Assembly: GCA_002869165.1 (NCBI GenBank)
Contig: PKTK01000002.1
Coordinates: forward strand, 1,235-65,234
Direction of reading: 5' to 3'
Source: Candidatus Parcubacteria bacterium
GTDB lineage: Bacteria > Patescibacteriota > Patescibacteriia > Patescibacteriales > UBA12075
DNA: 64,000 bases
Below, one piece after another: positions 42,256-63,200 of the stretch (the first letter of the stretch is position 1; every line of letters begins with the position of its first letter). Below the pieces are notes generated by a model. That model did not search any database. It saw only the letters and a program-made list of their open reading frames with translations, and was not told the origin of the DNA. A program made the position numbers and the translations under genes.

Positions 42256-42363
42256 TTTTTTATATGTGACTTTCGGAACCCTTGGGATCCTTGGGACTTT
42301 TGAAATTATATCTCAAGAGTCCTAAGGATCTCAACAATCCTAATGGTCTTATCTTAATTTAAA
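42256..42363. repeat. operon-spacer hairpin element, family C
   Basis: cttgggatccttgggacttttgaaa faces tctcaagagtcctaaggatctcaa. Confidence 0.65.
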
Positions 42364-42594: not shown

Positions 42595-42662
42595 ATACAA
42601 TATATTTATTCGTATGTGCGACATCCTTTAGTTAAAATAATAGTGTCGCGCTTCAAAAATAA

Positions 42663-43067
42663 TTATTTTTTGACAACTTTACACTTCACTGGAAGTTTGT
42701 AAGCGGCTAATCTCATTGCCTCTACAGCCATCTTTTCTTCAACACCATCCATTTCAAACATGATCATGCCAGGTTTTACTACTGCTACATAGTGATCAAC
42801 AGCACCTTTACCTTTACCCATAGGCATTTCACCACCTTTGGCTGTTACCGGTTTGTCGGGAAAAATTCTGATCCATATTTTACCACCACGCTTCGTATAT
42901 CTAGTCATAACTCTTCTAGCAGCTTCAATTTGACGTGATGAAACCCAGCAAGGCTCCATAGTTTTTAGTGCATATTGACCAAAGCTAATGGTAAGCTTTC
43001 TAGAAGCTTTTCCGCCTCTTCTGCCTTTATGTGATTTTCTGTATTTAGTTTTCTTTGGCATTAACAT
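42663..43067 (-). CDS. rplP: 50S ribosomal protein L16
   Basis: [16 protein letters not shown]. Confidence 0.95.
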
Positions 43068-43076
43068 ATTTGTCTC

Positions 43077-43226
43077 CTACGAATTACGAATCCTTTGCGA
43101 ATTTACGAATCCATCTATTTAATCTATTTGATTATTTTATAAACTATTTATTTTAAATTGCTAGAAAATACTTCCAGGTACTACGCAAATTTATTCGTAA
43201 ATTCGTACCGATTCGTATTTTCGTAG
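43077..43226. repeat. operon-spacer long hairpin element, family A (paralog of 41369-41517)
   Basis: 34-nt arms at 43077-43110 and 43193-43226 with an 82-nt loop. The loop shares ttataaaataatcaaa.agattaaata with the other copy. The right arm abuts the TAG stop of rpsC. Confidence 0.8.
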
Positions 43227-43227
43227 C

Positions 43228-43914
43228 CTATTTTTTCTTTCCGATTACTTCTCCTTTTTTATCGTCTGTTTTTTCAAATTTATCACCTTTATAAATCCAA
43301 ACTTTGATTCCGATCACACCGTAAGTGGTATTAGCAATACCTCTGGCATAGTCAATATCAGCTCTTAGAGTATGAAGTGGAATCTTGCCACTGGTCAACA
43401 TTTCTGATCTGGCAATTTCAGCACCATTCAATCTTCCTGATACAATCACTTTCACTCCTAAGGCGCCAGCTCTTTCTACTCTAGACATAGTTTGCTTCAT
43501 TACTCTTCTAAATGGCATACGCTTTTCTAGATCTAAAGCCATAAGTTGTACGTTAATCTGTGCGCTCAAGTTAGGTCTATCGAATTCGTAAATATTTAGA
43601 TTTATATTGCCTGGTTTATAATTTTTTAAAAATTTAGTATGAACTTTTTTCTTTAAATCATCAGCACCTGAACCACCTCTACCAATAATAATTCCTGGTT
43701 TTGCTGTATAGATTCCTACATTAACTTTTTTAGCATCTCTTTCAACCTCTACCCTGTCGACACCAGCTTCTCTTAATTCTTTCATTAAAAACCTTCTCAT
43801 AGCAACGTCTTGCTGAACGTTCTTGCTATAGTCTTTTCCGCTGGCATACCATTTTGATGGCCATGCTTTACTTACACCGATTCTAAAAATTTTTGGATTA
43901 ATCTTTTTTCCCAT
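43228..43914 (-). CDS. rpsC: 30S ribosomal protein S3
   Basis: [15 protein letters not shown] domain, [10 protein letters not shown]. Confidence 0.95.
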
Positions 43915-44024
43915 ATTTTTATAATACGAATACTACTAATTATATCCGAATACTACGAACCTTTTTTATAAATCAATTCGGATATGCCCTGTTCGTAGTT
44001 AGGGCTTCCCGAAGGAAACATCAT
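43915..44024. repeat. operon-spacer element, family B (paralog of 40935-41043)
   Basis: Minus strand: TTCC-UUCG-GGAA tetraloop hairpin right after the rplV stop, GCCCTAACTACGAACAGGGC, then the ATATCCGAAT/ATTCGGATAT inverted repeat. Confidence 0.75.
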
Positions 44025-44600
44025 TTAACCGCTTTTTCTTCTGAAAACTTTTGACCCAAATCCCTTAGTGCTAGTTCCTTCGATCTTGGTATTTTTACCT
44101 TTTCCTTCTCCTCTTGGATCAACTATTTTTTTTCCTTTTTCTTCAGTATTTTTTTTATCTTTTTCTTTCTTGGTTTTAAGCTTAGCGTCTCCTTCTTCTT
44201 TTGCCTTAGCTCCCAATGAAATTGGGGCTTCAATTGTTTGTTTCTTTGCTTCCTTTGCGCCTGAATCAACTAGCTCGCCTAAAATTAAATTTATATGTGA
44301 AGTTCTCTTTCTAATAGGAGTGGCTCTTCCTCTTGCTCTTGGCATCCATCTTTTCATGGTTACACCTTCATCAACTTTGATTTCTTTCACGAATAAATTA
44401 GTTTCATTAAGTTCATATGTATTTACAGCATTAGCAATTCCTGACTTAATAAGCTTAGCAACTACTTCTGTTGCTTTCTTATTCATAAACTTTAATTGAT
44501 TCAAAGCATCATCAACTTTTGCACCACGAACCACATCCACAACCAATCGTGCTTTTCTTGGTGAAATTCTTACATTTTTTACGCTTGCTTTAACTTCCAT
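44025..44600 (-). CDS. rplV: 50S ribosomal protein L22 with a Lys-rich C-terminal extension
   Basis: RISPRKARLVVDVVRG core; 191 aa. Confidence 0.92.
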   Translation of the reverse strand: MEVKASVKNVRISPRKARLVVDVVRGAKVDDALNQLKFMNKKATEVVAKLIKSGIANAVNTYELNETNLFVKEIKVDEGVTMKRWMPRARGRATPIRKRTSHINLILGELVDSGAKEAKKQTIEAPISLGAKAKEEGDAKLKTKKEKDKKNTEEKGKKIVDPRGEGKGKNTKIEGTSTKGFGSKVFRRKSG

Positions 44601-44709
44601 GATATTTTAGTTAGATTCTTAGGCTTCTTAAGGCCCTTTGGATTATTGAAAATCTTTTTTTCAAAAATCCCAAGAGTCTTAAAAGTCTTAAGGGTCTTTT
44701 TATAATTAC
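44601..44709. repeat. operon-spacer hairpin element, family C-like
   Basis: gattcttaggcttcttaaggccctttggatt faces aatcccaagagtcttaaaagtcttaagggtc. Confidence 0.6.
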
Positions 44710-44985
44710 TTATTTTTGAGTCTTGGCCATTTTACCGCCATGACTTACAAATTTTCTAGTGTGAGCAAACTCACCAAATTTATGTCCTACCATATTCTCT
44801 ACAACCGTAACATTTATATGTTGTCTGCCGTTGTGTACACCAAAAGTAAACCCAACCATCTCTGGAGTTACAGTACATGATCTATCCCAAACCTTAATAA
44901 CTGTTTTGTCATTAGGCTGCATATTCTTTACTTTATTTAGTAACCTTTCGTTTACGTAAGGTCCTTTCTTTAAACTTCTTGGCAT
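44710..44985 (-). CDS. rpsS: 30S ribosomal protein S19
   Basis: [11 protein letters not shown]...GHKFGEF. Confidence 0.95.
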
Positions 44986-45000
44986 AATATTATTTCTAAA

Positions 45001-45158
45001 CTAATACGCGAATTAATTACTAATTTACGAATTCTATTTCTATAGCTTCTATCCCTTTATTTTATTTTTTAATAACCTGCTTTATCTTACGAATTTACTA
45101 ACTCTATCAAAGGAAATATTTAATAGTATTAGTAAATTCGTAAGCAATTAGTTATTAG
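45001..45158. repeat. operon-spacer hairpin element, family A-like (TACGAAT / TACTAAT words)
   Basis: Perfect 16-bp pairing between cttacgaatttactaa (45086-45101) and ttagtaaattcgtaag (45129-45144). The outer arms 45001-45032 / 45127-45158 are imperfect. Confidence 0.7.
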
Positions 45159-45166
45159 TTTAGGAT

Positions 45167-46012
45167 TTATCTTTTTTTCTTACTTGATTTTCTTCTAATA
45201 ATCAGTTTATCACTTGGACGATTTTTCTTTCTGGTCTTAACTCCTAGAGCTGGTTTACCCCATGGAGTTTTTGGATGTTTCAAACCGATAGGTTGGTTAC
45301 CTTCACCACCACCATGTGGGTGATCGACTGGATTCATAGCTGTACCACGAACCACTGGTCTCCAGCCTAACTTTCTTTTTCTGCCGGCACTTCCTAGTTT
45401 AATATGTCTTTTATCAGGATTACTTGCTTGACCAACAGTACACATACATTCTTTTTTGATCAATCTAATTTCTCCTGAAGGCATTTTTATTTGTGCGTAT
45501 TTATCTTCTACACCCATCACTTGAACACTGTTTCCTGCTCCTCTAGCAATCTTTGCTCCAAAACCTGGCTCAAGTTCTACATTATAGATATCAACTCCAG
45601 CAATTAAAAATTTTACTGGTAAAGCATTTCCTGCTTTGATCTCAATCTTTTTTCTTGAGCTTAAAATTGTTTCACCAACTTTTAAACCTATTGGTGAAAT
45701 AATATATCTTTTTTCACCATCAGCATAATGAAGTAATGCTATTCTAGCACCTCTGTTTGGATCATATTCGATAGAAGCAACTTTAGCTGGAATGTCATAT
45801 TTATCTCTTTTGAAATCAATTATTCTAAGAGCTCTTTTCACTCCTCCGCCTCTATGTCTAATTGTAATTCTTCCTTGAGAGTTTCTTCCGCTGATTTTCT
45901 TTTTGGCTTTTACCAATCTTTTTTCCGGTGTTGTTTTTGTAATATCTACAAAATCATCAAATCTTGCTTGACGTCTTCCCGGGGTTGTAGGTTTTACTCT
46001 TTTAACTGCCAT
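45167..46012 (-). CDS. rplB: 50S ribosomal protein L2
   Basis: [21 protein letters not shown]. Confidence 0.96.
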
Positions 46013-46098
46013 TGTATTTATAATTTTTGCGATAATGTATTAACAATCTCATTCTCCGCAAATAATTTTTAATTCTTAATTATTAATTCTTAATTGAA

Positions 46099-46560
46099 TT
46101 AAACTCCCTCGTAAATATTAATGGTTTTACCTTTTGGTAATGTTACTACCGCTTTTTTCCAGTCTTTCCTTTTACCCATAGTTCTACCATATCTTACTTT
46201 TTTACCTAGAACAGTCACAATATTTACTGCAACTGGTCTGATGCCGTATACTTCTAAAACTGACTCGGCTATTTCAATTTTGTTAGCTTTTTTACTTACT
46301 GCAAAAACATATTTATGCTCCGCGCTCAAACTTGCTGCCTTTTCTGTGATCAATGGCTTAACCAATACTTTGTAAGCTTTTGTTTTTGAGCTGTTTTTTT
46401 CACCTTTCTTAATCACCTTTTTGTCATCCTTGTACAAGTCTTTGGTGGCTACTTTCTTGGTTTCTTCTTTCTTAGCTTCTTTTTTAGTAGCAGGTTTAGC
46501 TTTGCTTTGAGTTTTTGGCTCTTTTACGTCTTCTTTTGTATCTTTTTTAAACAAACCCAT
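46099..46560 (-). CDS. rplW: 50S ribosomal protein L23 with a Lys-rich N-terminal extension
   Basis: Core YKVLVKPLITEKA...YVFAVSKKANKIEI; 153 aa. Confidence 0.9.
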   Translation of the reverse strand: MGLFKKDTKEDVKEPKTQSKAKPATKKEAKKEETKKVATKDLYKDDKKVIKKGEKNSSKTKAYKVLVKPLITEKAASLSAEHKYVFAVSKKANKIEIAESVLEVYGIRPVAVNIVTVLGKKVRYGRTMGKRKDWKKAVVTLPKGKTINIYEGV

Positions 46561-46574
46561 ATGTTATTTTGCAA

Positions 46575-47237
46575 TTATTTTGTATAAATTTCTTGAATAC
46601 TGTCAACTGATTTCTCTGAAATAATTAGTACATTATATTTTAACAAATCAAGAATATTAATATTTTCTAAATTAATATATTTTACGCCTTCCAAATTTCT
46701 TAAAGAATATTTTGCCTTATCGTCCTTTTCTTCGTTAACTACTAGGAAACTTCTTTTTGGTTGCTTCTCTTCTTTTTTGTTAGTGATTTTTTCAAAGTTT
46801 TTAATAACTTCCAAAGCTTCTTTGGTTTTAAAATTCTCAATCTTCAAATCTTCAACAATCATTAAATTATCATTTTTAACAAAATCTGAAAGCACCATTG
46901 AAATTGCACTTCTTTTCATTTTTCTGTTAATATCTTTTTTAAAATTTCTTTCTTTAGTTGGTCCAAAAGTAATACCACCACCAATCCAAATAGGACTTCT
47001 GTTTGAGCCAACCCTAGCTCTACCTGTTCCTTTCTGTCTCCATGGTTTTCTGCCACCACCTCTTACTTCTGCTCTGCTTTTAGTATGAGCCAAAACCTGT
47101 CTTTCGTTTGAACTTTGAGCTACCATAGCTTGATGAACCAATGATTCATTAACTTCCATACCAAAAACTTTTTCATCAAGGTTTTTATCCTTAACTGCCT
47201 CTGCTTTTTGATTGTATACTTTAACTTTGATTGACAT
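46575..47237 (-). CDS. rplD: 50S ribosomal protein L4
   Basis: AHTKSRAEVRGGGRKPWRQKGTGRAR. Confidence 0.94.
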   Translation of the reverse strand: MSIKVKVYNQKAEAVKDKNLDEKVFGMEVNESLVHQAMVAQSSNERQVLAHTKSRAEVRGGGRKPWRQKGTGRARVGSNRSPIWIGGGITFGPTKERNFKKDINRKMKRSAISMVLSDFVKNDNLMIVEDLKIENFKTKEALEVIKNFEKITNKKEEKQPKRSFLVVNEEKDDKAKYSLRNLEGVKYINLENINILDLLKYNVLIISEKSVDSIQEIYTK

Positions 47238-47304
47238 GTATTTAATTGTTAAATTGCTTTATTGTTAAATTATTAACAATATAGTCATTTAACTTTTTGA
47301 CAAT

Positions 47305-48147
47305 TTATTTAGACTCTTCTTTCTTAGCATCTACTTTTTCTTTTGCTTCTATTACTTCTTTTTCCACTTCTTTAGGAGTGGTAGCCTCTTTTGCATCACG
47401 GGTAAGTGATTCATCCGCCGCACCAGAGGTGCTTTGGGCGGACTTATCTTTCTCTGCAATAGTCTCTTCTTTCTTTACTTCTTCTTTCTTTTCTTGTTTA
47501 GTGATTTTTAGTTCTCCTTCACCAGCAATTAACACAAGTCCATTTCTAGCACCAGGAATACCACCTTTAATATATAAAATATTATTTTCTTGATCTACTT
47601 GAACAATCTCTAATGTTCTCATAGTTACTTTGTCACCACCAGTTCTTCCACCCATTCTTGTGCCTTTGAACACGTGAGCTGGTCCAGTAGCGCCAATAGA
47701 ACCCGGCATTCTTGATTGATCTTTATTACCGTGTTGTTCGTTTGTTCCTTTGAAGCCATGTCTTTTAACAACACCTTGAAAACCTTTTCCTTTTGAAGTT
47801 CCGGTAATTTGAATCTTGTCACCAGCTTCAAAAGTATCAACTTTCACAACATTTCCTAATTCTATATCAGTATTAACCTCCTCTACTCTGAATTCTCTTA
47901 AATTATGTAACGTTGTTTTGTTATCTATGTTAACACCAGCTTTTTTCAAATGCATCTTTTGTGGCTTGTTTATATTCTTTGTCTTTCTCTCACCAAAGCC
48001 AAGTTGAACAGCATTATAACCATCTTTTTCCTCAGTCTTTAGTTGGGTAATTCGACATGGACCTGCTAAAACTTTAGTAACAGCAATCACTTGATCACCT
48101 TGCCAAATTTGAGTCATTTCTTGTTTTTTCCCTATGATAAATTTCAT
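47305..48147 (-). CDS. rplC: 50S ribosomal protein L3 with a C-terminal extension containing an in-frame repeat unit
   Basis: FKGTSKGKGFQGVVKRHGF core. The tail carries SAQSTSGAADESLTRDA, encoded by 47395-47444. Confidence 0.93.
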   Translation of the reverse strand: MKFIIGKKQEMTQIWQGDQVIAVTKVLAGPCRITQLKTEEKDGYNAVQLGFGERKTKNINKPQKMHLKKAGVNIDNKTTLHNLREFRVEEVNTDIELGNVVKVDTFEAGDKIQITGTSKGKGFQGVVKRHGFKGTNEQHGNKDQSRMPGSIGATGPAHVFKGTRMGGRTGGDKVTMRTLEIVQVDQENNILYIKGGIPGARNGLVLIAGEGELKITKQEKKEEVKKEETIAEKDKSAQSTSGAADESLTRDAKEATTPKEVEKEVIEAKEKVDAKKEESK

Positions 48148-48403
48148 AAAATTCTTTTAGAAAGGCTAGTTTTTAAAAACAAAAAACTGGAACCTTTAGG
48201 ACCCAGCCGACAATACAAAAGCCATATTTATGACTCTATTCTAAATATTTATTTAGATTAATATGAATGTCGATTATCTCCTAGTAAAAATTATTCTTTC
48301 CTTAAGCACTTTCGTTGTTAAACGAGTTACCAAAGACCAAAATAATTCCTTATTTTAATGATACTAGTATATACTATTTTCAAAAATAAATCAAGTCCCC
48401 TAG

Positions 48404-48525
48404 CTAATTACTAATCATTTACAAATTTACTAATATTTTTACCTAATATTAGTTAATTTAAAAACAAAATCTGTAGTGAACAAAATTAATCAGAATTAGT
48501 AAATTCGTAATTAATTAGTAATTAG
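48404..48525. repeat. operon-spacer long hairpin element, family A-like
   Basis: 31-nt arms ctaattactaatcatttacaaatttactaat (48404-48434) and attagtaaattcgtaattaattagtaattag (48495-48525), inside the 386-bp rpsJ-rplC spacer. Confidence 0.7.
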
Positions 48526-48533
48526 TTTAGTTT

Positions 48534-48887
48534 CTACATTTTAATTTCCACATCAACTCCTGCTGGAAGACTAAGGTTGGTTAGTTCTTCAACGGTTTTT
48601 GCTGTTGGTTCAACAATATCAACTAATCTCTTATGAGTTCTCATCTCATATTGATCTTTAGCTGATTTGTGAACAAATGTAGAACGATTTACTGTATATT
48701 TCTTCTTCTCTGTTGGAAGCGGAATAGGACCAAAAACTTGAGCACAGCTTCTTTGAGCAGTGTCAATAATAGTTTTTGTTGATTGATCAATAATCTTGTG
48801 ATCAAAAGCTTTGATTTTGATACGAATCTTTTGACCAACTGTTCCACTTTCATTTTTTTCTTCTTTTTTTGCTTTTTTCTCTACCAT
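48534..48887 (-). CDS. rpsJ: 30S ribosomal protein S10 (short Lys/Glu-rich N-terminal extension)
   Basis: [16 protein letters not shown]...[12 protein letters not shown]. Confidence 0.94.
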
Positions 48888-48939
48888 TTGAATAATTATA
48901 ATGCGAACCTACAAACAATTTGTAGATCAGAATAATATT

Positions 48940-48983
48940 TAATAAATAAGCACAACAAAGTCGCTCAAACAAAGTGAGCGACT
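48940..48983 (-). terminator. terminator-like hairpin after tuf
   Basis: agtcgctca / tgagcgact stem followed by a moderately T-rich tract on the minus strand. Confidence 0.45.
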
Positions 48984-48991
48984 CTATGTGA

Positions 48992-50179
48992 TTATTTCAA
49001 AATCTTTGTTACAACACCAGCGCCAACTGTTCTTCCGCCTTCACGAATAGCAAATCTTTGCTTTTCTTCCAAAGCAATTGGAGCAATTAGTTTAACTGTC
49101 AATGGAACAGTATCACCAGGCATAACCATTTCAGTTCCTTCGGCTAATTCTACTTCACCAGTAACATCTGTTGTTCTGATATAAAATTGTGGTTTATAAC
49201 CTTTGAAAAATGGTTTGTGACGACCACCTTCTTCTTTGCTTAGTACATATACCTCAGTCTCGAACTCAGTATGAGGAGTAACGGTTCCTGGTTTTGCTAG
49301 AACCTGACCTCTCTCAACGTCAGTTTTCTTCATACCACGAAGAAGAACACCTGCATTATCACCACACATACCTTCATCAAGTTGTTTGTTAAACATCTCG
49401 ATTCCAGTTACTACTGTTTTTTGAGTATCTTTCAAACCAACAATTTCGATTTCTTCATTTAATTTAACAACACCTCTTTCAATTCTTCCTGTTACAACAG
49501 TACCACGTCCTTCAATTGAAAATACATCTTCAATAGGAAGTAAGAATGGTTGGTCAACGTCTCTTTCTGGTTCTGGAATAGAAGAATCAAGAGCATCCAT
49601 CAACTCCATAATAGCATCTCCAGCTTCTGTATCTGGAGCTTCAAGAGCTTTTAGAGCTGAACCTCTGATGATTTTAATATTATCACCATCAAATTCGTAC
49701 TTTTTAAGTAGATCTCTTACTTCTTCTTCAACAAGATCAATAAGTTCTTTGTCCTCAACCATGTCACATTTATTTAAAAATACAACCATGTTAGGCACAC
49801 CAACTTGTCTTGCTAATAGAATGTGCTCTCTTGTTTGAGGCATAGGACCATCAGTAGCAGCTACTACCAAAATAGCACCATCCATTTGTGCAGCACCAGT
49901 GATCATATTTTTAACATAATCAGCGTGGCCTGGACAGTCAACGTGAGCATAGTGTCTATTGTCTGTTTCGTACTCAACATGAGCTGTAGCAATAGTAATA
50001 CCACGTTCTTTTTCTTCATGAGCTGCGTCAATTTGGTCAAGCTCCTTATTGGAAGCTGTTTTACCTTTTGCGATTAACACCTTTAGAATTGCAGCGGTTA
50101 AAGTAGTTTTACCGTGATCTACGTGACCAATAGTACCTACGTTAACATGCGGTTTATTTCTTTCAAATTTTTCTGCCAT
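48992..50179 (-). CDS. tuf: elongation factor Tu
   Basis: [19 protein letters not shown], full length 395 aa. Confidence 0.97.
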
Positions 50180-50312
50180 GTTTTTTAGCCTGTACGACCC
50201 TTAAGTCATCTATAGTTTGACTCAAGGTTTCTACCCCTTTAAAAAGGGAACCAGTCGTATTTTTTTAAATTAATTATTAAATTTAGTTTATAATAAGCTT
50301 ATTAAACTACTA

Positions 50313-50864
50313 TTAATCTTCAACTTCTTCCAAATAATACCTGTCCTCTTCTATTATCTCTTCAGCGTTCTTTTTTCTATCACCTGGAATTGCCCAGTTC
50401 TTTTTCTTCTTATTTTTTTTAATAAATTGTTCTTTTTCTCTTGCTATAGTTGAAAAACTGTGCCAATCATTATCTTCTTCATCTCCCTCCTCCTCTTCAT
50501 CATCGAATAATTCTTCTAATTCAATATCATCATACTCCTTAGACATATATGGATCATCTAAATCACCATAATAATCATCATCTGACAAATTTTTAACTTC
50601 ATTTTCTGCTATTATTTTATCTAAGCTTAGCTGATTTTCATCTATTTCTTGGTCACTTTTCCAAATTGCAATATCGCGATTTATTTTATCAGCCAACTCC
50701 TCTTCTGTCAAGCCTCTCACCGGAGACCTTCCCACCACTATCTTCTCATATTCATCTACACTCATAACAACAAATGGATCATTTTGTCCACTTTGATCAA
50801 AAGCTATAATTCTATCACCTGTCTTCCTTGATAAATCTATTAATTTTTGCAATTTATTATCCAT
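50313..50864 (-). CDS. hypothetical acidic protein inserted between fusA and tuf
   Basis: 183 aa with a D/E-rich centre. The N-terminal PFVVMSVDEYEKI faintly resembles Phd/YefM-type antitoxin N-termini (weak). Confidence 0.5.
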   Translation of the reverse strand: MDNKLQKLIDLSRKTGDRIIAFDQSGQNDPFVVMSVDEYEKIVVGRSPVRGLTEEELADKINRDIAIWKSDQEIDENQLSLDKIIAENEVKNLSDDDYYGDLDDPYMSKEYDDIELEELFDDEEEEGDEEDNDWHSFSTIAREKEQFIKKNKKKKNWAIPGDRKKNAEEIIEEDRYYLEEVED

Positions 50865-50899
50865 GTGTGTGATTTATTTATTATATAGTGAATATTGGC

Positions 50900-50993
50900 C
50901 TACGAAAATACAAATCAATACGAATTTACAAATCGGATAATTACGAACATTATAAAATTATTCGTAAATTTGTATTAATTTGTATTTTCGCAG
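50900..50993. repeat. operon-spacer hairpin element, family A-like (TACGAAA / TACAAAT words)
   Basis: 33-nt arms at 50900-50932 and 50961-50993. I count 29 of 33 positions complementary. Confidence 0.7.
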
Positions 50994-51015
50994 ACTTTTC
51001 CGTAAAAAAATCCGG

Positions 51016-53091
51016 TTATTTCTTCTCTGCAGTAATTTTTTCAGCAATATTTTTTGGTACTTCTGAATAATGTAAAAATTCCATAGTATAATTTGCTCTA
51101 CCTTGAGACATACTTCGTAGCTGTGTAGCGTAACCAAACATTTCAGATAATGGAACACTGGCATTTACCACCTTTGCATTTGCTCTATCTTCCATTTGTC
51201 CAATTTGACCACGTTTCGAATTCAAGTCTCCAACAATACTTCCCATATATTCTTCAGGGGTAACAACTTCAACTTTCATGATTGGTTCAAGTAGAACTGC
51301 ATTTGCTTTTCTACAAGCTTCTTTAAAACCAAAGATTGCTGCCATTTTAAAAGCTGATTCAGAAGAGTCAACTTCATGATATGAACCATCATATACTGCA
51401 ACTTTAACATCTACCATAGGAAAACCAGCAATAACACCAGAATCCATAGCCTCTTTAATACCTTTTTCTATCGCTGGAACATAATCAGCTGGAACAACAC
51501 CACCTTTGATCTCGTTTAAAAATTCAAAGCCAGCACCTTCTTCTTGTGGTTAAACTCTAAGCCAACAATGACCGTATTGTCCCCTGCCCCCTGATTGCTT
51601 GATGTATTTACCTTCTGCTTCAGCTGTTTGTCTGATTGTTTCTCTGTATGATACTTGAGGCTGACCGATATTAGCTTCTACCTTAAACTCTCTTTTCATA
51701 CGATCAATAATAACATCCAAATGAAGTTCTCCCATACCTGAAATCAAAGTTTGATTTGTTTCCTCATCAGTTTCTACTCTAAATGTTGGGTCTTCTTCAG
51801 CAAGTTTTTGCAAAGCAAGTCCCATTTTTTCTTGGTCTGCTTTTGTTTTAGGTTCAACCGCAATCTTAATAACAGGCTCTGGAAAAGTAATTGACTCCAT
51901 CAAAAGCTTTCTTGATTCATCACAAAGAGTATTACCAGTCACTGTTCCTTTTAGACCAATTACAGCAGCAATATCACCTGCATACACTTCACTAACTTCC
52001 TCTCTGTGATTGGCATGCATTCTTACAAGTCTTCCAATTCTTTCTTTGTTTCCACTTGAAGTGTTGTATACATATGAACCAGATTTTAATACTCCAGAAT
52101 AAACTCTCACAAAACAAAGTTTACCAACAAATGGATCAGTGGCAATCTTAAAAGCAAGTCCAGCAAAAGCTTCATTATCACTTGCTTTAACTGGGATCTC
52201 TTTTGTCTCATCATTTATATCCAAACCAACTAGCTCTTTTACGTCTAGTGGAGATGGAAGATAGGCAATCACAGCATCAAGCGCATGTTGTACGCCGATA
52301 TTCTTAAGAGCAGATCCTGCCATAACTGGAAAAAGTTGAGTTGCTAATACTCCCTTTCTGATAGCTCCTTTTAATTCTTCTACAGTAATTTCCTGTCCAT
52401 CAAGATATTTTTCGGTCAAAGCATCGTCAACTTCTACCACTCTTTCAATCATTTCATTTCTTAATTCTTCACATTTTGCTTTAATGTCTTCAGGAATGTC
52501 AATTTCTACTATTTGCTCACCATGCATTCCTTCAAATTTGTAAGCCTTCATAAGAATAAGATCAACAATACCACTTAGGTTGTCTTCAGCGCCAATTGGA
52601 AATTGGATAGCTACAGCGTTTGGATTCAATCTATCTCTGATTGATTTAAGTGACATATCAAAATCACCACCTAGCTTATCCATCTTATTTACAAAACAAA
52701 GTCTAGGAACATTATATTTATCAGCTTGTCTCCAAACTGTTTCAGACTGAGGTTCAACACCAGCAGCACCATCAAATACTGCTACCGCACCATCAAGCAC
52801 ACGTAAAGAACGCTCTACTTCTACAGTAAAGTCAACGTGACCTGGAGTATCAATAATATTTAAACGATGATCTTTCCAAAAGGCTGTAGTAGCAGCTGAA
52901 GTGATAGTAATACCTCTTTCTTTTTCCTGCTCCATCCAATCCATATCAGACTCACCATCATGAGTTTCTCCAATTTTATGTTTTTTACCAGTGTAAAAAA
53001 GTACCCGTTCAGTAAATGTGGTCTTCCCCGCATCAATGTGAGCCATGATACCTATATTTCTGGTTTTTTCAAGTGAATATTCTCTAGACAT
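51016..53091 (-). pseudogene. fusA: elongation factor G interrupted by a single in-frame TAA (51550-51552); otherwise full length and colinear
   Basis: [18 protein letters not shown], ...[46 protein letters not shown]... Both track ORFs (51550..53091 and 51016..51447) are in the same frame (105-nt offset). The 'pseudogene' call is only the literal code-11 reading. Confidence 0.85.
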
Positions 53092-53194
53092 ACTTATTTT
53101 AATTTTTTAATTTTTAATTTTCAATTTTGTAAACAATTTTCAATGTTTCAATTTTGAAATTTAAAAAACTTATTCTATTAATTTATATAAATTT

Positions 53195-53716
53195 TTATTC
53201 GTTTTCTTCTTCGAATTTTACAAATCTTTCAATTAAGTCGGTGCCTTCTTCGTCAGTTACTGCTACATAGCCCTCTTTGGTACTACTAAATTCGAAGTAT
53301 AGGGTTACAGAATATTTATTATCTCTTACCTTAACTTCTTCTCCCACTAAAGGAGTTTTGTCGCTCTTTCTTAATTCAACAAACACACTTTCCTTTTCTT
53401 GATCAACTGTTCCTTCTATTTTAAGTGGACTACTAACAACACTATCTTCTTCAATGTTAATAGTTAATGACTTGTTTACTGTTTCGCTGTTTTCTCCATC
53501 AATGATCTTATCAATGACTTCTTGATCTTGTTTTGTCTGCAAATTAATATCTTCAATCGCCTGCTTTGCTCCTTCATAATCTTCAGTTAACTCAACTGGA
53601 GTTTTTTTTGAAAAAAAAGAGCCACCATAGACAAGGAATGCTATTAGTAATACTACTACTAATAACCCTATCAGTGCGGCATAACCTTTTTTGTTATCTA
53701 AAAGTGTAAACATCAT
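53195..53716 (-). CDS. membrane-anchored hypothetical protein inserted between rpsG and fusA
   Basis: N-terminal TM helix (AALIGLLVVVLLIAFLVYGG), then a beta-rich ectodomain. Confidence 0.55.
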   Translation of the reverse strand: MMFTLLDNKKGYAALIGLLVVVLLIAFLVYGGSFFSKKTPVELTEDYEGAKQAIEDINLQTKQDQEVIDKIIDGENSETVNKSLTINIEEDSVVSSPLKIEGTVDQEKESVFVELRKSDKTPLVGEEVKVRDNKYSVTLYFEFSSTKEGYVAVTDEEGTDLIERFVKFEEENE

Positions 53717-53791
53717 ATTAGCTTTTAGGTATTAGCTTTTAGCTTTTAGGGCTTTCCTACAAGCTAGAAGCTAAAAGCTAGTAGCTAGGAT
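53717..53791. repeat. operon-spacer inverted word repeat (TAGCTTTTAG words)
   Basis: tagcttttaggtattagcttttagcttttagg faces ctacaagctagaagctaaaagctagtagcta. Confidence 0.55.
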
Positions 53792-54259
53792 CTACCTAGC
53801 AAAGTGAGCAAATGCTTTATTTGATTCAGCCATTTTATGTACCATTTCTTTCTTTCTTACAGCATTTCCTTCTCCGGTTGAAGCAGCGGTAATTTCTGAA
53901 GCTAAACGTTCAGCCATTGATTTTCCTTTCTTATCTCTAGCTGCTTCGATAAGCCAACGACACCCAAGAGTAAATCTTCTCTCACCTCTAACTTGGTAAG
54001 GAATTTGATAGTTAGCTCCACCGATTCTTCTACCTCTAACTTCTAGTAACGGAGAAACTTTCTTAAGTGCTTTATTAAAAACGTGTCTTGGATCTTGTTT
54101 GGTTTGTTTCTTGATAATATCAAAAGCTGAATACACAATTCCTTGAGCAATCCCTTTTTTACCATCAACCATGATATAATTTATAAATTTTGAAATATCA
54201 GTATCATTATATCTGATATCTCCTTCGATTTTTCTTTTTGGAGCTCTTTTTCCCCTCAT
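53792..54259 (-). CDS. rpsG: 30S ribosomal protein S7
   Basis: MRGKRAPKR...VEVRGRRIGGANYQIP. Confidence 0.95.
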   Translation of the reverse strand: MRGKRAPKRKIEGDIRYNDTDISKFINYIMVDGKKGIAQGIVYSAFDIIKKQTKQDPRHVFNKALKKVSPLLEVRGRRIGGANYQIPYQVRGERRFTLGCRWLIEAARDKKGKSMAERLASEITAASTGEGNAVRKKEMVHKMAESNKAFAHFAR

Positions 54260-54431
54260 AATGTTTTCTTCAACTTAGCCGGAGCATTCTTAACGCAATC
54301 ACCTGACACTAAGCTTACTCATTATTTTTCTTAAACTTTTTAATTTCTAATTTTATAATTTTCTATGTTTACAAATTTATTTATTTGTGTAATTTAAAAT
54401 TGTTTACAAATTATAAATTACTACTTATAAA

Positions 54432-54860
54432 TTAATTTGCTGTTGCTTTTTCTTTCTTTGCTCCATACATACTTCTAGAATTCTTTCTGTCAGCCACGCC
54501 TTGAGTGTCATAAACACCTCTTACTACTTTATATCTTACACCTGGAAGATCAGCTGTTCTACCTGCTTTAAGCATCACAATAGAGTGTTCTTGTAAATTA
54601 TGCCCTACACCTGGGATATAAGCGGTTACTTCCATTCCATTTGAAAGTCTAACTCTTGCAATTTTTCGAAGAGCTGAGTTAGGTTTCTTTGGAGTAGTTG
54701 TAGTCACCTTCAAACAAACCCCTCTTTTAAAAGGTGCTCCTTTTCTTAGTGTTGTTCTTTTTCTGTGTAAGGTATCTAGGGTAGTTTGCAATGCAGCGTA
54801 TTTAACTTTCTTTTTCTTGGAAACGCGCCCTTTTCTTACCAATTGGTTAATAGTATGCAT
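54432..54860 (-). CDS. rpsL: 30S ribosomal protein S12
   Basis: [10 protein letters not shown]...[10 protein letters not shown]...GHNLQEHS. Confidence 0.96.
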
Positions 54861-54950
54861 AATTATTTTAGTATTATATTTCAGTTTAAAAAATACTGAA
54901 TTAAATTTATTAATAAAACAAACCCGTTAAAACCGGGTAAATGCTTTTTT

Positions 54951-54979
54951 AATTTAGCAAAATACAAGAAATAAGTCAA
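54951..54979 (-). promoter_or_regulatory. candidate sigma70-like promoter of the ribosomal super-operon
   Basis: Minus strand reads TTGACT, a 17-nt spacer, then TAAATT, about 90 nt upstream of rpsL. Confidence 0.4.
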
Positions 54980-54995
54980 GAGCCATAACAAATTT

Positions 54996-55028
54996 TTAAT
55001 TTATAATTTATAATTTATAATTTATAAA
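54996..55028. repeat. short tandem heptamer repeat (TTATAAT x3-4)
   Basis: Read directly: ttataat ttataat ttataat ttataaa. Confidence 0.6.
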
Positions 55029-55123
55029 ATAAAAAATAATATTTTATCCTAAAATTAGCTATTTTTAGACAAAACACACCTAATCAACTTTAAAAATATT
55101 TATTTTAGTATTAAACTAAAAAT

Positions 55124-55321
55124 ATGCGTTTTATAATTCTTACAATTTTACTTTTTCTTTTCCTGGGAACGAACTTTCTTTCACTGATCTTTAATACTTC
55201 GGTTAGCGCTACTGAATTTAAACCAAGCGATTTTAAGAATGAATTAAGTGACTTTTCTATATCAATTGGCGAAAACCGAGAAGATGGACGATATATAAAA
55301 TTTAAATACGAGTATAAATAA
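55124..55321 (+). CDS. small secreted hypothetical protein
   Basis: 65 aa with a signal-peptide-like N-terminus (MRFIILTILLFLFLGTNFLSLIFNTSVSA). A terminator hairpin follows directly. Confidence 0.5.
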   Translation: MRFIILTILLFLFLGTNFLSLIFNTSVSATEFKPSDFKNELSDFSISIGENREDGRYIKFKYEYK

Positions 55322-55361
55322 AAACAGAGCCTAGCCCTGTTTTTATTTTTATATAAAAATC

Positions 55362-55973
55362 TTAAGTAATTCCTGTTATTAACGAAAATAAAATATAAAT
55401 TATTGGTAGTATCAATCTAAATCCTACTGCAATAAAGATAAATACCAAAAACATGCCGTATTGTTCAAATATTAGTAATTTTTCCTGAATACTTATTGGT
55501 AAAAATGGCATAATGACCTTTGAGCCATCAAGTGGTGGAATTGGTACCAAATTAAATACCATTAGCAATAAATTAACAAAAACAATTATTTGCATCATGT
55601 AGACCATGTCTGTATTCGCAAAAGGAACGAATCTAATCAGTAACCCAATAATTATAGCAACAGCTAAATTAGCCATAGGACCAGCCACAGCCACCTTAGC
55701 ACCTCCATACTTTTTATCACGTAAATTATACGGATTAAAAGGAACTGGTTTTGCCCAGCCAAACACAAAAGGAGCGCCTGTAGTAATTAAAATGAAAGGT
55801 AATAAAATAGAACCAATTGGATAAATATGCGGAATTGGATTTAAAGTCAATCTACCTAAGTCTTTTGCGGTAGTATCGCCCAACCTATCAGCCATCCAGC
55901 CATGCATATATTCATGAATGATCGCTGAAAAGATCAATACAATTACCTGAAATATTGCTATATTCATTGTCAT
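55362..55973 (-). CDS. site-2 protease family (M50) zinc metalloprotease
   Basis: HEYMHG (HExxH) in a TM helix and a later PIPPLDGS motif. Confidence 0.8.
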   Translation of the reverse strand: MTMNIAIFQVIVLIFSAIIHEYMHGWMADRLGDTTAKDLGRLTLNPIPHIYPIGSILLPFILITTGAPFVFGWAKPVPFNPYNLRDKKYGGAKVAVAGPMANLAVAIIIGLLIRFVPFANTDMVYMMQIIVFVNLLLMVFNLVPIPPLDGSKVIMPFLPISIQEKLLIFEQYGMFLVFIFIAVGFRLILPIIYILFSLITGIT

Positions 55974-56111
55974 AATTTTATCTTTTCTTCCTAGTCTTGC
56001 ATTTATTACGCAAACATGTTATGGTTAATTTCGAAATAAATATATTATCTAAATAGGTGCAAAAGGTCATCTTTTTATTTTTTTTATAAAACCTAAGCAC
56101 TAAAAAATATT

Positions 56112-56288
56112 ATGTATAAACAATGTGAAATTTGCGGAAGAAGTTCTACTAAAGGTGCAGCCAGGTCTCATTCTAACGTAAGAACAAATAAACGTCAAAA
56201 TATCAACTTGCAAAGCAAAACCGTAAAAGGTGGCAAAATGCAAGTATGTACAAAGTGTTTAAAAACTGCAAAAAAACTTGCTAACTAA
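56112..56288 (+). CDS. rpmB: 50S ribosomal protein L28
   Basis: My own translation: MYKQCEICGRSSTKGAARSHSNVRTNKRQNINLQSKTVKGGKMQVCTKCLKTAKKLAN (58 aa). Below the ORF-track cut-off. Two terminator hairpins follow (56290-56322, 56333-56364). Confidence 0.85.
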   Translation: MYKQCEICGRSSTKGAARSHSNVRTNKRQNINLQSKTVKGGKMQVCTKCLKTAKKLAN

Positions 56289-56470
56289 AATCCCCTTTCA
56301 AGTTGCAAGGGGACCAGTTTTAAAATCTATCAAATATTCCTTTCTAAAAAGGAATATTTTTTATTTACAAACTCATTAACAAAAAAATAAGTAGAATCAA
56401 AAGCACGCTTAAAATTATCAAGATCTTTAAGAATGTTAAACCTGGTTTTTCAGGATTAATAAACATAAAC

Positions 56471-56857
56471 TTAAACCATCCCTAGTTTCTTTTTAACTAA
56501 TGCAACCACATCTTCAAGTCTCCAATCGGTTTTTACCAAAAAATCAAACACGCCATAGCTAGCAACTTCAGAAACAGAATCAGGGTCACTTAAATTAGTT
56601 AACATAATTATTGGCACTTCTTTGCCCCAGGTGCTACTTTCTCTAATTTTTTTAGTTGCACTAATACCATCTAATTTTGGCATTAAAATATCAAACATCA
56701 AAATATCTGGTTTTTCTTTCAAAGCGATTTTCAAACCTTCTTCACCGTCAGGAGCGTTAAATGTCTCAAAATCACTCTTTTTAAATTTTTCAACCAAGGC
56801 TTCACGCATGGCTGTTTCATCCTCTACAATTAAAATTGTTTTTTTGCCTTCTGACAT
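56471..56857 (-). CDS. stand-alone response-regulator receiver protein
   Basis: TILIVEDE, DILMFDILMPKLDG, PIIMLTN. Confidence 0.85.
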   Translation of the reverse strand: MSEGKKTILIVEDETAMREALVEKFKKSDFETFNAPDGEEGLKIALKEKPDILMFDILMPKLDGISATKKIRESSTWGKEVPIIMLTNLSDPDSVSEVASYGVFDFLVKTDWRLEDVVALVKKKLGMV

Positions 56858-56920
56858 ATTATTTATAATTAAGATATTTTATTATTATAGTAAATGTAAT
56901 CAAAATATCCCTGTTTATTT

Positions 56921-58066
56921 TTATTCTATACTATTTAGTTTTTTTGTGCCAATCTTTCTTTTCATACCTTGCAAAGGAATTGTTATAAAGAAAGTTGTAC
57001 CTTGATTTTGCTTATCTATTGGAACATTAGACTGTTTCTTGGGATCAAGTAAAAGATCAAAGCTGGGTGACTGAAACCATATCCTACCTCCACTTTTTTC
57101 AATAATCGCTTTTGTAATATAAAGACCCAATCCTGTACCAACTGACTCCATTCTCTTTACATTATCTGCTCTAAACATCTTAGTAAAGACATTTGGTTGT
57201 TGTTCTCTTGGTATGCCACAACCATTATCTGATATCTTTATCAATACATCTTTTTCTGTTTTTCTAAGCACTATCTGAACTGTACCACCTTCAGGGGTGT
57301 ACTTGACAGAATTGGAAATAAGATTCTCAAAAAACATTTTGGTTAAGCGCCTATCAAGATTGATCAGTGGAATATCATCATAAAGTCTTTCAATGTGTAG
57401 CTTCTTTTCTTTGATTTCTTCAGTAAATTTTTCCAGAGCTTTATCAGCTCTTTCAGTGATATCAGTTGGCTCAGGTTCAATCGAAAAGGTACCAACATCT
57501 ATTCTTGATACATCCAACAAAGCATTCACCAGATCAATCAATCTTTCGTTACTTTCATAAGCTTCGGTTAAATATTTATGTTGCTCCTCGTTCATTTCAC
57601 CAGCGTCTCCTGCCAAAACAAAATCAATATACCATTTTATGATTGATAACGGTGTCCTCAACTGATGACTAGCCAAAGCAACAAAATCCGTTTTTGCTTG
57701 GGACAGTTCTTTGTGTTTGGATACGTCTTGAGCAATTCCGGTATTTAGACGTGACATAAGTTCATTAACAGCGTGTGCTAGTTGACCAATTTCATCTTTA
57801 GTGCCAGTTTTTAGATTTTCTGAAAAATTACCAGCTGCCATCTCTTCTATCTTAAATACGACATTTGCAAGTCTTTTGGAGAACCACCTACTTATTGTAT
57901 AAGCAAAAATAAAAGCAACTGTTAAAAGTATATAAGCAAGAATAAACAAATATGCCCAATCTATCTCTGTTAAAAACTTTACTAAAAAAATTACTATCAA
58001 AGTAAAAATAAAAAAGACCACCAATATCTTATCAGACAAATTTATACTCCTTGTTTTTATTTTCAT
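56921..58066 (-). CDS. HAMP-domain sensor histidine kinase
   Basis: Two TM segments, HAMP, H-box SHQLRTPLS, DNGCGI, GTGLGL. Confidence 0.88.
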   Translation of the reverse strand: MKIKTRSINLSDKILVVFFIFTLIVIFLVKFLTEIDWAYLFILAYILLTVAFIFAYTISRWFSKRLANVVFKIEEMAAGNFSENLKTGTKDEIGQLAHAVNELMSRLNTGIAQDVSKHKELSQAKTDFVALASHQLRTPLSIIKWYIDFVLAGDAGEMNEEQHKYLTEAYESNERLIDLVNALLDVSRIDVGTFSIEPEPTDITERADKALEKFTEEIKEKKLHIERLYDDIPLINLDRRLTKMFFENLISNSVKYTPEGGTVQIVLRKTEKDVLIKISDNGCGIPREQQPNVFTKMFRADNVKRMESVGTGLGLYITKAIIEKSGGRIWFQSPSFDLLLDPKKQSNVPIDKQNQGTTFFITIPLQGMKRKIGTKKLNSIE

Positions 58067-58344
58067 TTATTAAATATAGCTAATTTTAGGAAAATTTAAC
58101 CTAAAAATTACAAAAAACTTTGGTTTTTTGCCAAGCCATATGTTTATTAATAATATACACTTATTTTACAATAATTTACAATTTTTGTAAAACTTTAGTT
58201 ATCAACAAATAAAAAAAAAAATACATTGACAAATTTAAATAAATATGATATAATTTTAAGTTAAAATTAAAGACTTGAGTTATTTGTATTACTAGTATAT
58301 AATCTCTATTATTAGCAAAAACAAATAACATAACTAAAAAAACA

Positions 58345-60135
58345 ATGAAAAACATTTTTAAAAATCTATTAAAAAACAAAACTTCTAGAAATATCATACT
58401 GCTAGTTTTGATTGTCGGTCTGGTTTTTTCAGGAGTTTCTTTGGCTGTTAAAAATAATGAAAGCCAGGAAGAAAACAAGGAATTTATCAAAACTGTATCT
58501 ACTCAGATTATTAATGGCGATGAAGCGAATAAGAGCCAAATAGAAACTGTTGGTGTAGTTGAAGCCCAATCTAGTATTGATGTAATTTCCACCATTTCAG
58601 GAACTCTTAAAGGTTTGTACTTTAATGTAGGGGATGAAGTTTATCAAAACCAATCTCTTGCTCAATTATACAGTTCAACTGCATTAACAAGTTTAAACAA
58701 TGCTCAAACAAACTTAAATAATATTCAGAGTTCACTTACTACCACTCAAAGAATAACTGACGAATCTATCAGGCAAACAGAGATTGGTGTAGAACAAGCA
58801 AATATTGGCCTAGAAAATGCCAAAAAATCTATCCAAGTTGCTGAACTAGGTCTTAAAACAGCTCAGGATAATTTAAACAATGCTATAAAAATAAAGGAAA
58901 AGTCTTTAAAAGATCAAAAAAATAAAGCTGTAATAAACTTTAATGCATATGTTAATACTATATTTAGTGCCCGTGACCAAGTAGCACTACTTATCAATGC
59001 GAACACCTCTGAATTATTGAGTTCTAATCTTTGAGCAAAAAATCCCGAAACTATTTCTGAAACTAAATCAGCTTATGCTTTAGTTAATAAAAAATATAGC
59101 GAACTAAAAAATATCTCTCCTAGCCTGGAAACAATTGAAAGCAATTTACAAGATAGTGTAGATGGACTTAGTTTAAGTGAAAACATGCTAAACAAAGCTA
59201 TTAATCTTTTAGATAACACTGTAAGTGGTGGATCTTATTATGAATCTACACTTGCTAGTCAAAAAAGTTCTTTTACTCTACTTCGTGCCAATGTAATTAC
59301 GGCATTAAACGGAGCCAAAACAGAACTTGAGGCCTTATCAACTGTTGATCTAGCAAATTCTACAGATATCACAGCCTTAAACAATGCTGTAAGTGCTGCA
59401 GAAGCTCAATTATAAATTGCTATTACAGCCAAAGATAATGCAGAAATTGCTGTTAAAAACGCTAAACAAGCGGTTGAAAGCGCTAAAGTTGCTCAAAGCC
59501 AACAACTCTTAAGCGTAGAAACTCAGGTTGATAGTGCAAGAGGTCAATACAATCTAAGTAGCGCTCAAACTGCTGACTTGAATATCAAGGCTCCAATTAA
59601 AGGTACTATCACTGAAAAATACGTTGAATTAGGTACTGAGGTAAGTATTGGTCAAAAAATTGCACAAATTTCTCAATTAAACAACATGAAAATTGTTGTT
59701 AATGTTTCCAGCGAGGATATTTACAGAATTCAACTAGGCCAAACTGTGATGATTGAAAATAACCTTGAAGGGATTATTTCTTCTATAAATCCTTCCGCTG
59801 ATCCCGTTACCAAAAAAGTAAAGGCTGAAATTATTTTTAATAACGAAAATAAAGAATTGATTCAAGGAACATTTGTAAATGTTTCAATTCCAGTTGAAAA
59901 AATAGAAAAAAGTAAAAGCGACTCAGTTTTCATTCCCTTGCGAGCTGTAACAATTACTGCAAACGAAAAATATGTTTATGTTAATGAGAATGGCTTTGCC
60001 AAAAAAATACTTGTAGAATTTGGGAAAACAGAAAACGCTTTAGTTGAGATCACCAGTGGTCTTACAAGTGGTGATGAATTGATAACTGACGGAGGCAAGC
60101 TACTTGAAGATGGAGATGAGATTATAATTAAATAA
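58345..60135 (+). pseudogene. RND/ABC efflux periplasmic adaptor (HlyD/MFP family) with in-frame TGA (59032-59034) and TAA (59413-59415)
   Basis: The three track ORFs (58345, 59185, 59578) share one frame. N-terminal TM anchor, long coiled-coil hairpin, and C-terminal barrel (IKAPIKGTITEKYVELG ... DGDEIIIK). The sequence stays coiled-coil-like across both stops. Confidence 0.8.
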
Positions 60136-60240
60136 GATTCTAGAGACCCTTGATATCTTTGGGATATTTGAGAATCTGCTTACTTACAGATCTTAATTTC
60201 CCAAAAAACAAGACTCATAATAATCGTACTCAAATATTAT
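60136..60240. repeat. spacer element with family C-like vocabulary between the adaptor and RND genes
   Basis: agagacccttgatatctttgggatatttgagaatc ... cagatcttaatttccc. Confidence 0.4.
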
Positions 60241-63200
60241 ATGAAAACTACTAACCACCCGGGAGATAAAAAACCGGATATACTTTCAAAGGAAGAATAC
60301 TAAAAAAATCTAAACGAAAAATTAGACAAAGGACTAAAGAAGACAGAAAAATCTGTGATTGGTTTTTTTATCCGAAATTTTCGTTTTACATATCTATTAC
60401 TCCTAACCATGATTTTTCTTGGGACATATTCTCTTATGACTCTTCCTAAAGAGTCTGAACCAGAGATCGAAGTTCCTTTTGGTGTGGTGACTACAATATA
60501 TCCAGGAGCAAATCCTACTGATGTTGAAGAACTTATTACCAATAAGATAGAAAAGGAAATAAATAATCTAGACAACTTAAAGATATATACTTCTAGCTCA
60601 GGGGCTGGTTTTTCCTCTATCTTTGTAGAATTTGAAGCTGAAGCTGACTTGCAAGAATCTTTTAGAAAACTAAGAGAAGCTGTTGATAGAGCTGAGCCAG
60701 AACTACCTAGTGATGTTGAAAATCCACAAGTATCTGAAATTAATTTCAATGACTTTCCAATTGTAACCTATTCTTTGGTTGGCGACTATACAGATGTGGA
60801 ATTAAAAGATTACGCGAATATTATCAAAGATGAGCTCGAAACAATATCTGATGTTTCAGAAGTTGATATTTTAGGTGCTCTTGAACAAGAATTTCAAATT
60901 ATTGTAAATGAGAAAAAACTTAATTCATACAAGCTAAATTTATCAAGTCTAAGCCAAGCTATCAGTTCTGCAAATTTTTCCTTACCAGCTGGAGATATTG
61001 ATGTTGATGGCTTTACTTATGGCATTAGAGTAAAAGGGCGTTTTACAAGTATCGAAGATCTTGAATCAATTGTAGTGACATCTCTTGATGGAACTCCTAT
61101 TCTTCTGTCTGATGTAGCACAAATCAGTGATTCATTCAAAGAAAGGAATACAATTTCAAAAATTGGTTTTTCTGATACACCATCAAAAAATACAATTTCT
61201 TTACAAATCAGAAAAAAAACTGGTGGAAATATCTTGAAGATCGTTGACAATGCCAATCAAAAGATTGATGAAATCCAAAATAGTAATTTAATTCCAACTG
61301 ATCTAGAAATCCTAAAAACCAACGATAATTCAATTTTTATCAAAGATGATATTAAAACTCTCGGTACTAGTGGTATTCAAACTGTTATTCTTATTACCTT
61401 GATTCTTCTTATGGTGCTTAGTTTGCAAGGTGCTATCATCACAGCTCTAGCTGTACCATTTGCTTTTCTAACTGCATTTATCTTTTTAAATCTACAAGGC
61501 ATGACCTTAAACTCAATGGTGCTTTTTTCACTAGTACTATCTCTTGGTCTTATGGTTGATAATGCAATTGTAATTATTGAGGGTGTTAATGAATATATAT
61601 CCAAGCACAAAAAGAATTCCTATGAAGCTGCTATGCTTTCAGTGTGGAATTTTAAGTGGGCAATCACCGCTGGAACCTTAACTACAGTATCTGCATTTTT
61701 ACCCATGCTTCTTGTTTCAGGAATCATGGGCCAGTACATTGCTACCCTACCTAAAACTATTACCGTTACTTTACTCTCTAGTTTATTTGTAGCGTTAGTT
61801 ATCATTCCTACTTTAGTAACTAGATTTTTGAAAGTAAAAGTAAATGGAAATGCTAAACATAGAGATAAAAAAAGACATCTATTTATAGAAAATAAAATTT
61901 CAAAGCTACATATTAAATATGAAGCAATACTAAGAAATATTTTGCCATATAAGAAAAAAAGGAGAAGAATCATTGCTATATCATGGATTGTTTTTTTCTT
62001 GGCTGTATCTGTTCCAATAAGTGGTCTTATGAAAATTGAAATGTTTGGTGACATGGACCTTGATTATTTCTATGTAAATATCGAAACTCCTGTAGGGACT
62101 AGTCTAGAAGCTACTGAAAGGATAGTGGCTAGCACAGAAGAAATTGTTAGAAATATTCCCGAACTTGATAACTATGTGTTGAATGTTGGGGCATCTGCTG
62201 CTTCTGGTTTTGCTGGAGATACTGGTGCTACCGCTACTCACCTAGCAGGCGTTACCGTAAATCTAGTTGACCCTAGTGAAAGAGATAGAAAAAGTTATGA
62301 AATTGCGGATTCTCTTCGTGATCAGTTTGCTTCTATTCAAGGAGCTAAATTTTCAGTAACAGAGCTTACTGCTGGACCTCCAACTGGAGATCCAATTGAA
62401 GTTAGAATATCCGGAGATGATTCTAGTACCATTGCAGACATTACCGCTCAAGTTCTTGACTGGATGAATAATAAAGAAGGTGTAATAAATGCGGAAGACA
62501 ATCTAGAAAATTCAGCTGGAGAATTTACTTTTGAAATAAATAAACAAAAAGCCAACTACTACGGGTTAAATACTTTATCAATCGCCTCAGCTCTACGAAG
62601 CGCTAAATATGGAGCTTCGGCTGGAACTGTAAATGTTAATGGTGAAGATGTTGATATTACAGTAAAATACGATGATTCAGAATTCCAAACTATCAACGAC
62701 CTGAATGAAATATTACTTACAACCGCCACTGGAGAAAGTATTCCTTTAAAAGAAGTTGCCTCGGTTACATTAGAACCTGCTCTACTTTCCATTAGCCATA
62801 GAGATGGTGATGAAACAGCCATTGTAAGCGCCGACACTGAAGCTGGCGCAAATTTACAAGACATCTTAGCTGATTTTGATGAATACCAAAGTAAAATAGA
62901 CCTACCAGAAGGTTATTCTATTTCTGTTGGTGGAGAAGTTGAGGACATACAACAATCATTTACATAAATATTCTTATCAATGATTTTATCTGTTGTATTG
63001 ATTGCAGTTATCTTGGTCTTACAGTTTAACTCATTCAAACAACCATTCCTAATTCTATTTACTGTACCGCTTTCGTTTGTCGGTGTAATATTTGGTTTAA
63101 ATTTACTACTTATGCCGTTTTCATTCCTAGCCTTTATTGGTATAGTTTCTTTATCAGGAATTGTAGTAAATGACTCAATCGTATTAGTTGACAGAATAAA

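Follow-up and report, generated by a model that had tools for sequence, protein, structure and literature searches.

fusA carries one in-frame stop codon within a str-type operon

The window, by which we mean the whole 64-kb stretch of DNA analysed here, contains a str-type operon whose gene order places the elongation factor G (EF-G) gene, fusA, at its canonical location (rpsL-rpsG-fusA-tuf; Table 1). Two short open reading frames without Pfam hits are intercalated in this operon, one with a hydrophobic N-terminus and one that is very acidic, and both are also found in sister contigs from other assemblies. In translation, fusA runs for 513 codons to a TAA (TTA on the plus strand) and continues in frame for 177 codons more, up to its natural TAA terminator. 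Using Pfam, we detected GTP_EFTU, GTP_EFTU_D2/EF-G_D2, EFG_III, and positions 1-37 of EFG_IV in the part upstream of the stop, while the downstream part matched positions 39-121 of the 121-position EFG_IV profile as well as EFG_C. Because the profile resumes at position 39 after ending at 37, the stop takes the place of exactly one residue, midway through domain IV, without an insertion or deletion. The GTPase domain and domains II, III, IV, and V were thus colinear in Pfam, and with glutamate restored at the stop, the protein aligned end to end (1-689) with Staphylococcus aureus EF-G (2xex). These results bear out the preliminary description of this DNA, which had reported a single in-frame TAA in an otherwise colinear, full-length fusA with all G-domain motifs and an intact C-terminus.

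As had also been claimed, TAA is the usual terminator in this DNA, ending 54 of the 72 genes in the window, compared to 16 ending in TAG and 2 in TGA. Reassignment of TAA to a sense codon was rejected on this basis, and also because the in-frame stops described below are a mixture of TAA and TGA that is confined to G:C>T:A sites private to the window. The scarcity of TGA as a terminator (2 of 72 genes) is a general property of the window, as is a strong negative GC skew through most of its length; almost all genes are encoded on the minus strand. Five small genes (56-77 aa) form a run at about 18249..19529 on the minus strand (11014..12294 of L005), between ndk and an M28/M20 peptidase gene. 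The run has no Pfam hits, is present in both the Logan and JGI contigs introduced below, and may represent a small-protein cassette.

Table 1. Coordinates of genes, open reading frames, and base changes in the window.
Feature	Position	Strand	Remarks
UvrB-like ORF	987..2810	plus	607 aa, GTG start; somewhat short for family
UvrC-like ORF	5598..7034	minus	478 aa; somewhat short for family
ABC-transporter ATPase S573*	31416..31418	minus	TCA>TAA; window-private
rplN Q18K	41847		window-private missense
rpsJ G48C	48746		window-private missense
str-type operon	48992..54860	minus	rpsL, rpsG, 173-aa ORF, fusA, 183-aa ORF, tuf; then rpsJ
tuf	48992..50179	minus	
tuf P54H	50019		window-private missense; EF-Tu DxAPEEKxRGITI segment
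183-aa ORF	50313..50864	minus	between fusA and tuf; very acidic; no Pfam hits
fusA (EF-G)	51016..53091	minus	691 codons, stop at codon 514
In-frame TAA, fusA codon 514	51550..51552	minus	GAA (Glu514) in sister assemblies
173-aa ORF	53195..53716	minus	between rpsG and fusA; hydrophobic N-terminus; no Pfam hits
rpsG	53792..54259	minus	
rpsL	54432..54860	minus	
rpsL P2H	54856		window-private missense
rpmB S2Y	56116		window-private missense
RND membrane-fusion protein G230*	59032..59034	plus	gene 58345..60135; GGA>TGA; window-private
RND membrane-fusion protein S357*	59413..59415	plus	second stop in this gene; TCA>TAA; window-private
AcrB-like RND pump E21*	60301..60303	plus	gene 60241..63456; GAA>TAA; window-private
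AcrB-like RND pump F704 vs V	62350		G>T common to window and JGI contig, absent in ENA contig
AcrB-like RND pump E909*	62965..62967	plus	GAA>TAA; common to window and JGI contig

Sister assemblies carry an uninterrupted fusA

A large protein collection was searched with the EF-G query in which the stop had been masked, and this search returned two full-length EF-G proteins of 691 aa with about 100% identity. One is encoded in ENA assembly ERZ794999 (contig NODE_58, 151 kb, with a coverage of 24 according to the contig name) and the other in JGI 3300007102 (contig Ga0102541_1248654, 65 kb). The ENA protein is identical to the window EF-G at each of the 690 other residues, with glutamate at position 514; the JGI protein also has Glu514. 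At the nucleotide level, ENA fusA differs from the window at one of 2,076 positions, window 51552, where the change from GAA to TAA is C>A on the plus strand and G>T in the gene. The preliminary description had placed the stop where glutamate is usual, one G>T step away, and both assemblies of this strain that cover fusA do read GAA at codon 514 and lack the stop. Among the 120 closest homologues, the nearest of which are named Parcubacteria or Falkowbacteria in public records, 108 have glutamate in this column and none is interrupted. An exact look-up of the 513-aa truncated EF-G found no record in any indexed public assembly, and exact-pattern scans around the stop site in genome and metagenome contigs, with and without N at the variable base, returned no matches. 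Most likely, the organism's fusA is intact and the TAA represents a GAA in which G was read as T, as these sequence comparisons suggest.

Changes private to the window are dominated by G:C>T:A

We compared the window with the JGI contig over positions 9904..63091, with a Logan contig (SRR5894289_1234) over 9904..37784, and with the ENA contig over 41016..63091. All three were collinear with the window without gaps, at 99.89-99.94% identity; the ENA locus, for example, aligned without gaps over 22,076 bp with 19 differences. Judged by their sequences, the window, ENA, JGI, and Logan contigs are the same strain assembled four times. Differences were polarised by majority against the three sister assemblies over 49,957 bp, in which there were no indels. 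This left 38 substitutions private to the window, 34 of which were G>T or C>A, an excess over other classes that has a binomial probability of about 1e-28 under a uniform spectrum. Since only four window-private changes belong to any other class, true divergence among the assemblies is nearly nil. The G:C>T:A changes amount to about 0.7 per kb in the window contig, or 0.2% of G/C sites.

The same class of change was present to different extents in the other assemblies. In the JGI contig, 12 of 14 private changes were G>T or C>A, which corresponds to about a third of the window rate; these include fusA L230I and two rpsG missense changes (for example, at window-equivalent positions 52404, 53806, and 54011). 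The Logan contig had a single private change, which was not of this class. By majority rule the ENA contig had two private changes, but effectively none: both sites appear better read as G>T changes common to the window and the JGI contig, at 62350 and 62965, that the ENA contig lacks. As independent random errors, two such shared changes would coincide with P=5e-4, which suggests either that these assemblies have material or data in common or that some changes are real variants. A separate site, window 37568, is C in the window (Pro61 of a Ribosomal_L27A-family (uL15) protein) and A (Thr) in both the JGI and Logan contigs, and it is the only such site. If the window is ancestral there, it would be a C>A change common to two other assemblies.

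The changes strike many genes and show no trace of selection

Besides fusA, genes for an ABC-transporter ATPase, an RND membrane-fusion protein, and an AcrB-like RND pump acquire stops through this class of change (Table 1), and all three appear split in the window's list of open reading frames and are intact in the ENA contig. At pump codon 909, where the window and the JGI contig share a stop, the ENA contig has GAA and encodes a 1071-aa product. Either a truncated pump allele is really circulating, or the window and the JGI assembly share material or reads. The missense changes in tuf, rpsL, rpsJ, rpmB, and rplN are all of the G:C>T:A class. Position 54 of EF-Tu is proline in both solved EF-Tu sequences shown in the alignment, and some of the changes, such as EF-Tu P54H and rpsL P2H, strike residues that selection would be expected to protect. 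Exact look-ups of the window proteins at 2891..3682, 4255..5466, 9667..10701, and 11084..12259 gave no match; the latter two carry window-private missense changes. The UvrB-like and UvrC-like reading frames lie within 1..9903, outside the region compared with sister assemblies, and may be truncated by the same errors.

To describe the outcome of unselected change, all possible G>T and C>A changes were enumerated at the 16,347 G/C sites of the compared region. Neutral hits would be 10.8% nonsense, 71.9% missense, 7.6% synonymous, and 9.6% intergenic, so that 34 random changes are expected to divide as 3.7, 24.5, 2.6, and 3.3, respectively. The observed split was 5 nonsense, 20 missense, 5 synonymous, and 4 intergenic, which is indistinguishable from an unfiltered process (chi-square p=0.29), while five or more nonsense changes under a tenfold purging of nonsense would have a probability of 3e-5. 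Of the codons that one G:C>T:A step turns into a stop, GAA is the commonest, with GAA>TAA accounting for 47% of these targets, so a stop in place of GAA is the expected kind of casualty.

Sequence context and proposed origin of the changes

We then considered the bases around the mutated guanines. The base 3' of the mutated G was a purine in 32 of 34 cases, compared to a background of 53% (p=1.6e-7), and was G in 14 of 34 compared to a background of 19%. There was no asymmetry between G>T and C>A per plus-strand site (p=0.38); such an asymmetry might have spoken for an origin in vivo. The lesion 8-oxoguanine (8-oxoG) has a bias for G on its 3' side that has been explained by chemical predisposition, while the in vivo human signatures 18 and 36 lack this 3'-G bias (reviewed in PMC6974700). 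Oxidation while libraries are prepared is known to give rise to false G>T and C>A calls, and the artefacts induced by shearing occur at low allele fraction and mostly as CCG>CAG (Costello et al. 2013, PMC3616734). Only 2 of the 34 window changes fall in this CCG>CAG context.

Guanine oxidation fits the combination of a G:C>T:A spectrum with a 3' purine. Oxidised guanine pairs with A when copied, so that G is read as T; most likely, the damage occurred in the template DNA or in the library and was then fixed in the consensus, for instance through a low effective number of templates, amplification, or low coverage. The single-base difference, the intact allele in sister assemblies, the spectrum, and the lack of a selection filter are observed; the technical route from damaged bases to consensus is the part of the explanation that we infer. 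The changes stand in the consensus of an assembled contig that spans 64 kb or more, whereas the published artefact is of low fraction, and such a bottleneck would be needed to reconcile the two. The rarity of the CCG>CAG context and the two G>T changes that the window has in common with the JGI contig also count against an artefact. On balance, the spectrum, the indifference to coding consequence, and the undamaged sister sequences make it very probable that the fusA stop is a consensus artefact of the oxidative-damage type or, failing that, no more than an unselected lesion of the DNA that was sampled.

Alternative explanations

The same changes could instead be real G:C>T:A mutations that arose in vivo, in a lineage that was deficient in GO repair, oxidatively stressed, or dying, leaving a non-functional fusA allele that had not been purged. 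A G:C>T:A spectrum is also that of mutY or mutM deficiency, and the changes sit in the consensus rather than at low frequency. Two further G>T changes occur in both the window and the JGI contig, a pattern that inheritance would produce. However, the 34 changes bear no trace of purifying selection. With 0.2% of G/C sites affected, a genome of 1 Mb would harbour such changes by the hundred, also in essential genes that are typically single-copy (fusA, tuf, rpsL), and about 11% would be nonsense. Such a load is hard to square with a clone abundant enough to yield a contig that spans 64 kb or more. The ancestral, undamaged sequence is the one found in the ENA and Logan assemblies, and the 3'-G bias is nearer to raw 8-oxoG lesion maps than to repair-filtered human signatures (PMC6974700). 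We therefore regard mutation in vivo as unlikely. A more elaborate version, in which a small-genome bacterium without effective 8-oxoG repair maintains populations with a large unpurged transversion load that includes fusA nonsense alleles, and in which several genome copies in each cell or low-level UAA read-through could make this load bearable for a time, seems to us very unlikely.

The remaining explanations concern fusA itself. Of the options that the preliminary description had listed, the evidence supports an artefact or variant and speaks against a decaying copy, read-through, and expression as two polypeptides. In some bacteria EF-G is present as a pair of paralogues (PDB has entries under the names EF-G 1 and EF-G 2, for example), and the window copy could be a recently inactivated one that is backed by a second fusA elsewhere in the genome. 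This copy, however, sits in a canonical str operon, its stop belongs to a window-wide class of change that also strikes other genes, and no second EF-G lies within the 64-kb window. A pseudogene would be recognised by several disabling lesions or by relaxed constraint relative to functional orthologues, and fusA, which differs from the intact allele at one nucleotide in 2,076 and has no indels, shows neither of these signs of decay; inactivation with a backup copy is highly improbable.

Decoding of the TAA by programmed site-specific read-through, by a suppressor tRNA, or by reassignment has in its favour that the stop is in frame within an essential gene and that the next base is C, which makes for relatively weak termination in E. 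coli. Conservation of the stop, however, already fails within the strain: the sister assemblies have GAA, and 120 of 120 closest homologues are uninterrupted. The flanks match the GAA allele base for base, leaving no dedicated signal, and any RNA fold there would not be particular to the stop. A suppressor tRNA, for which the preliminary description had proposed a search, was not found in the 64-kb window, where ARAGORN detected no tRNA gene at all. Read-through would be expected to leave a conserved stop together with a cis signal or a suppressor tRNA, and neither was seen in the homologues or the window; other genes, moreover, bear TAA and TGA stops from the same process. We accordingly give special decoding of this codon almost no credence. 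The idea that EF-G is made as two polypeptides that assemble on the ribosome draws on the length and shared frame of the two reading frames. Against it, domain IV itself would be cut, between profile positions 37 and 39 of 121; the earliest in-frame start available is an ATG (51447) that lies 34 codons past the stop, which would cost part of domain IV; and no relative has a split EF-G. The chance that EF-G is made in two pieces is negligible.

Implications and comparison with known systems

As a biological feature, the fusA stop is most likely not real. The main value of these results is as a quality flag for the window contig and, to a lesser degree, for the JGI contig Ga0102541_1248654. G:C>T:A errors of this kind make intact genes look like pseudogenes, split others, and introduce spurious amino-acid variants, with ribosomal proteins and elongation factors among those affected, and in-frame stops or odd substitutions in this assembly should be compared with the clean ENA or Logan versions before they are interpreted. 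If the changes were real, they would suggest that an uncultured bacterium with a small genome is in an oxidative mutator state that goes unrepaired, which the present evidence does not support.

Compared with the canonical EF-G of str operons, as in S. aureus (2xex) and Thermus thermophilus (1dar), the window protein with its glutamate restored has the same five domains and aligns from end to end, and its gene likewise stands between rpsG and tuf. What sets the window apart from the canonical operon is one nonsense codon and the two short, unannotated intercalated reading frames that are also present in sister contigs. Programmed recoding, such as the prfB +1 frameshift or stop read-through, similarly places a stop in frame within a translation-machinery gene, but programmed sites are conserved across relatives and bear signals, whereas the fusA stop is absent elsewhere in the strain and has no such signal. 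Bacterial mutators of the GO system (mutY, mutM, mutT) resemble the window in the dominance of G:C>T:A; real lineages of this kind nonetheless keep purifying selection in essential genes, of which none was seen in the window. The 8-oxoG artefacts of library preparation (Costello et al. 2013, PMC3616734) were published as changes of low allele fraction that cluster in CCG>CAG, while the window changes stand in the consensus and affect G followed by a purine. Like the window changes, these artefacts are almost exclusively G>T/C>A and blind to coding consequence, and here too the effect is specific to the sample, being pronounced in the window, milder in the JGI contig, and absent from the ENA and Logan contigs.
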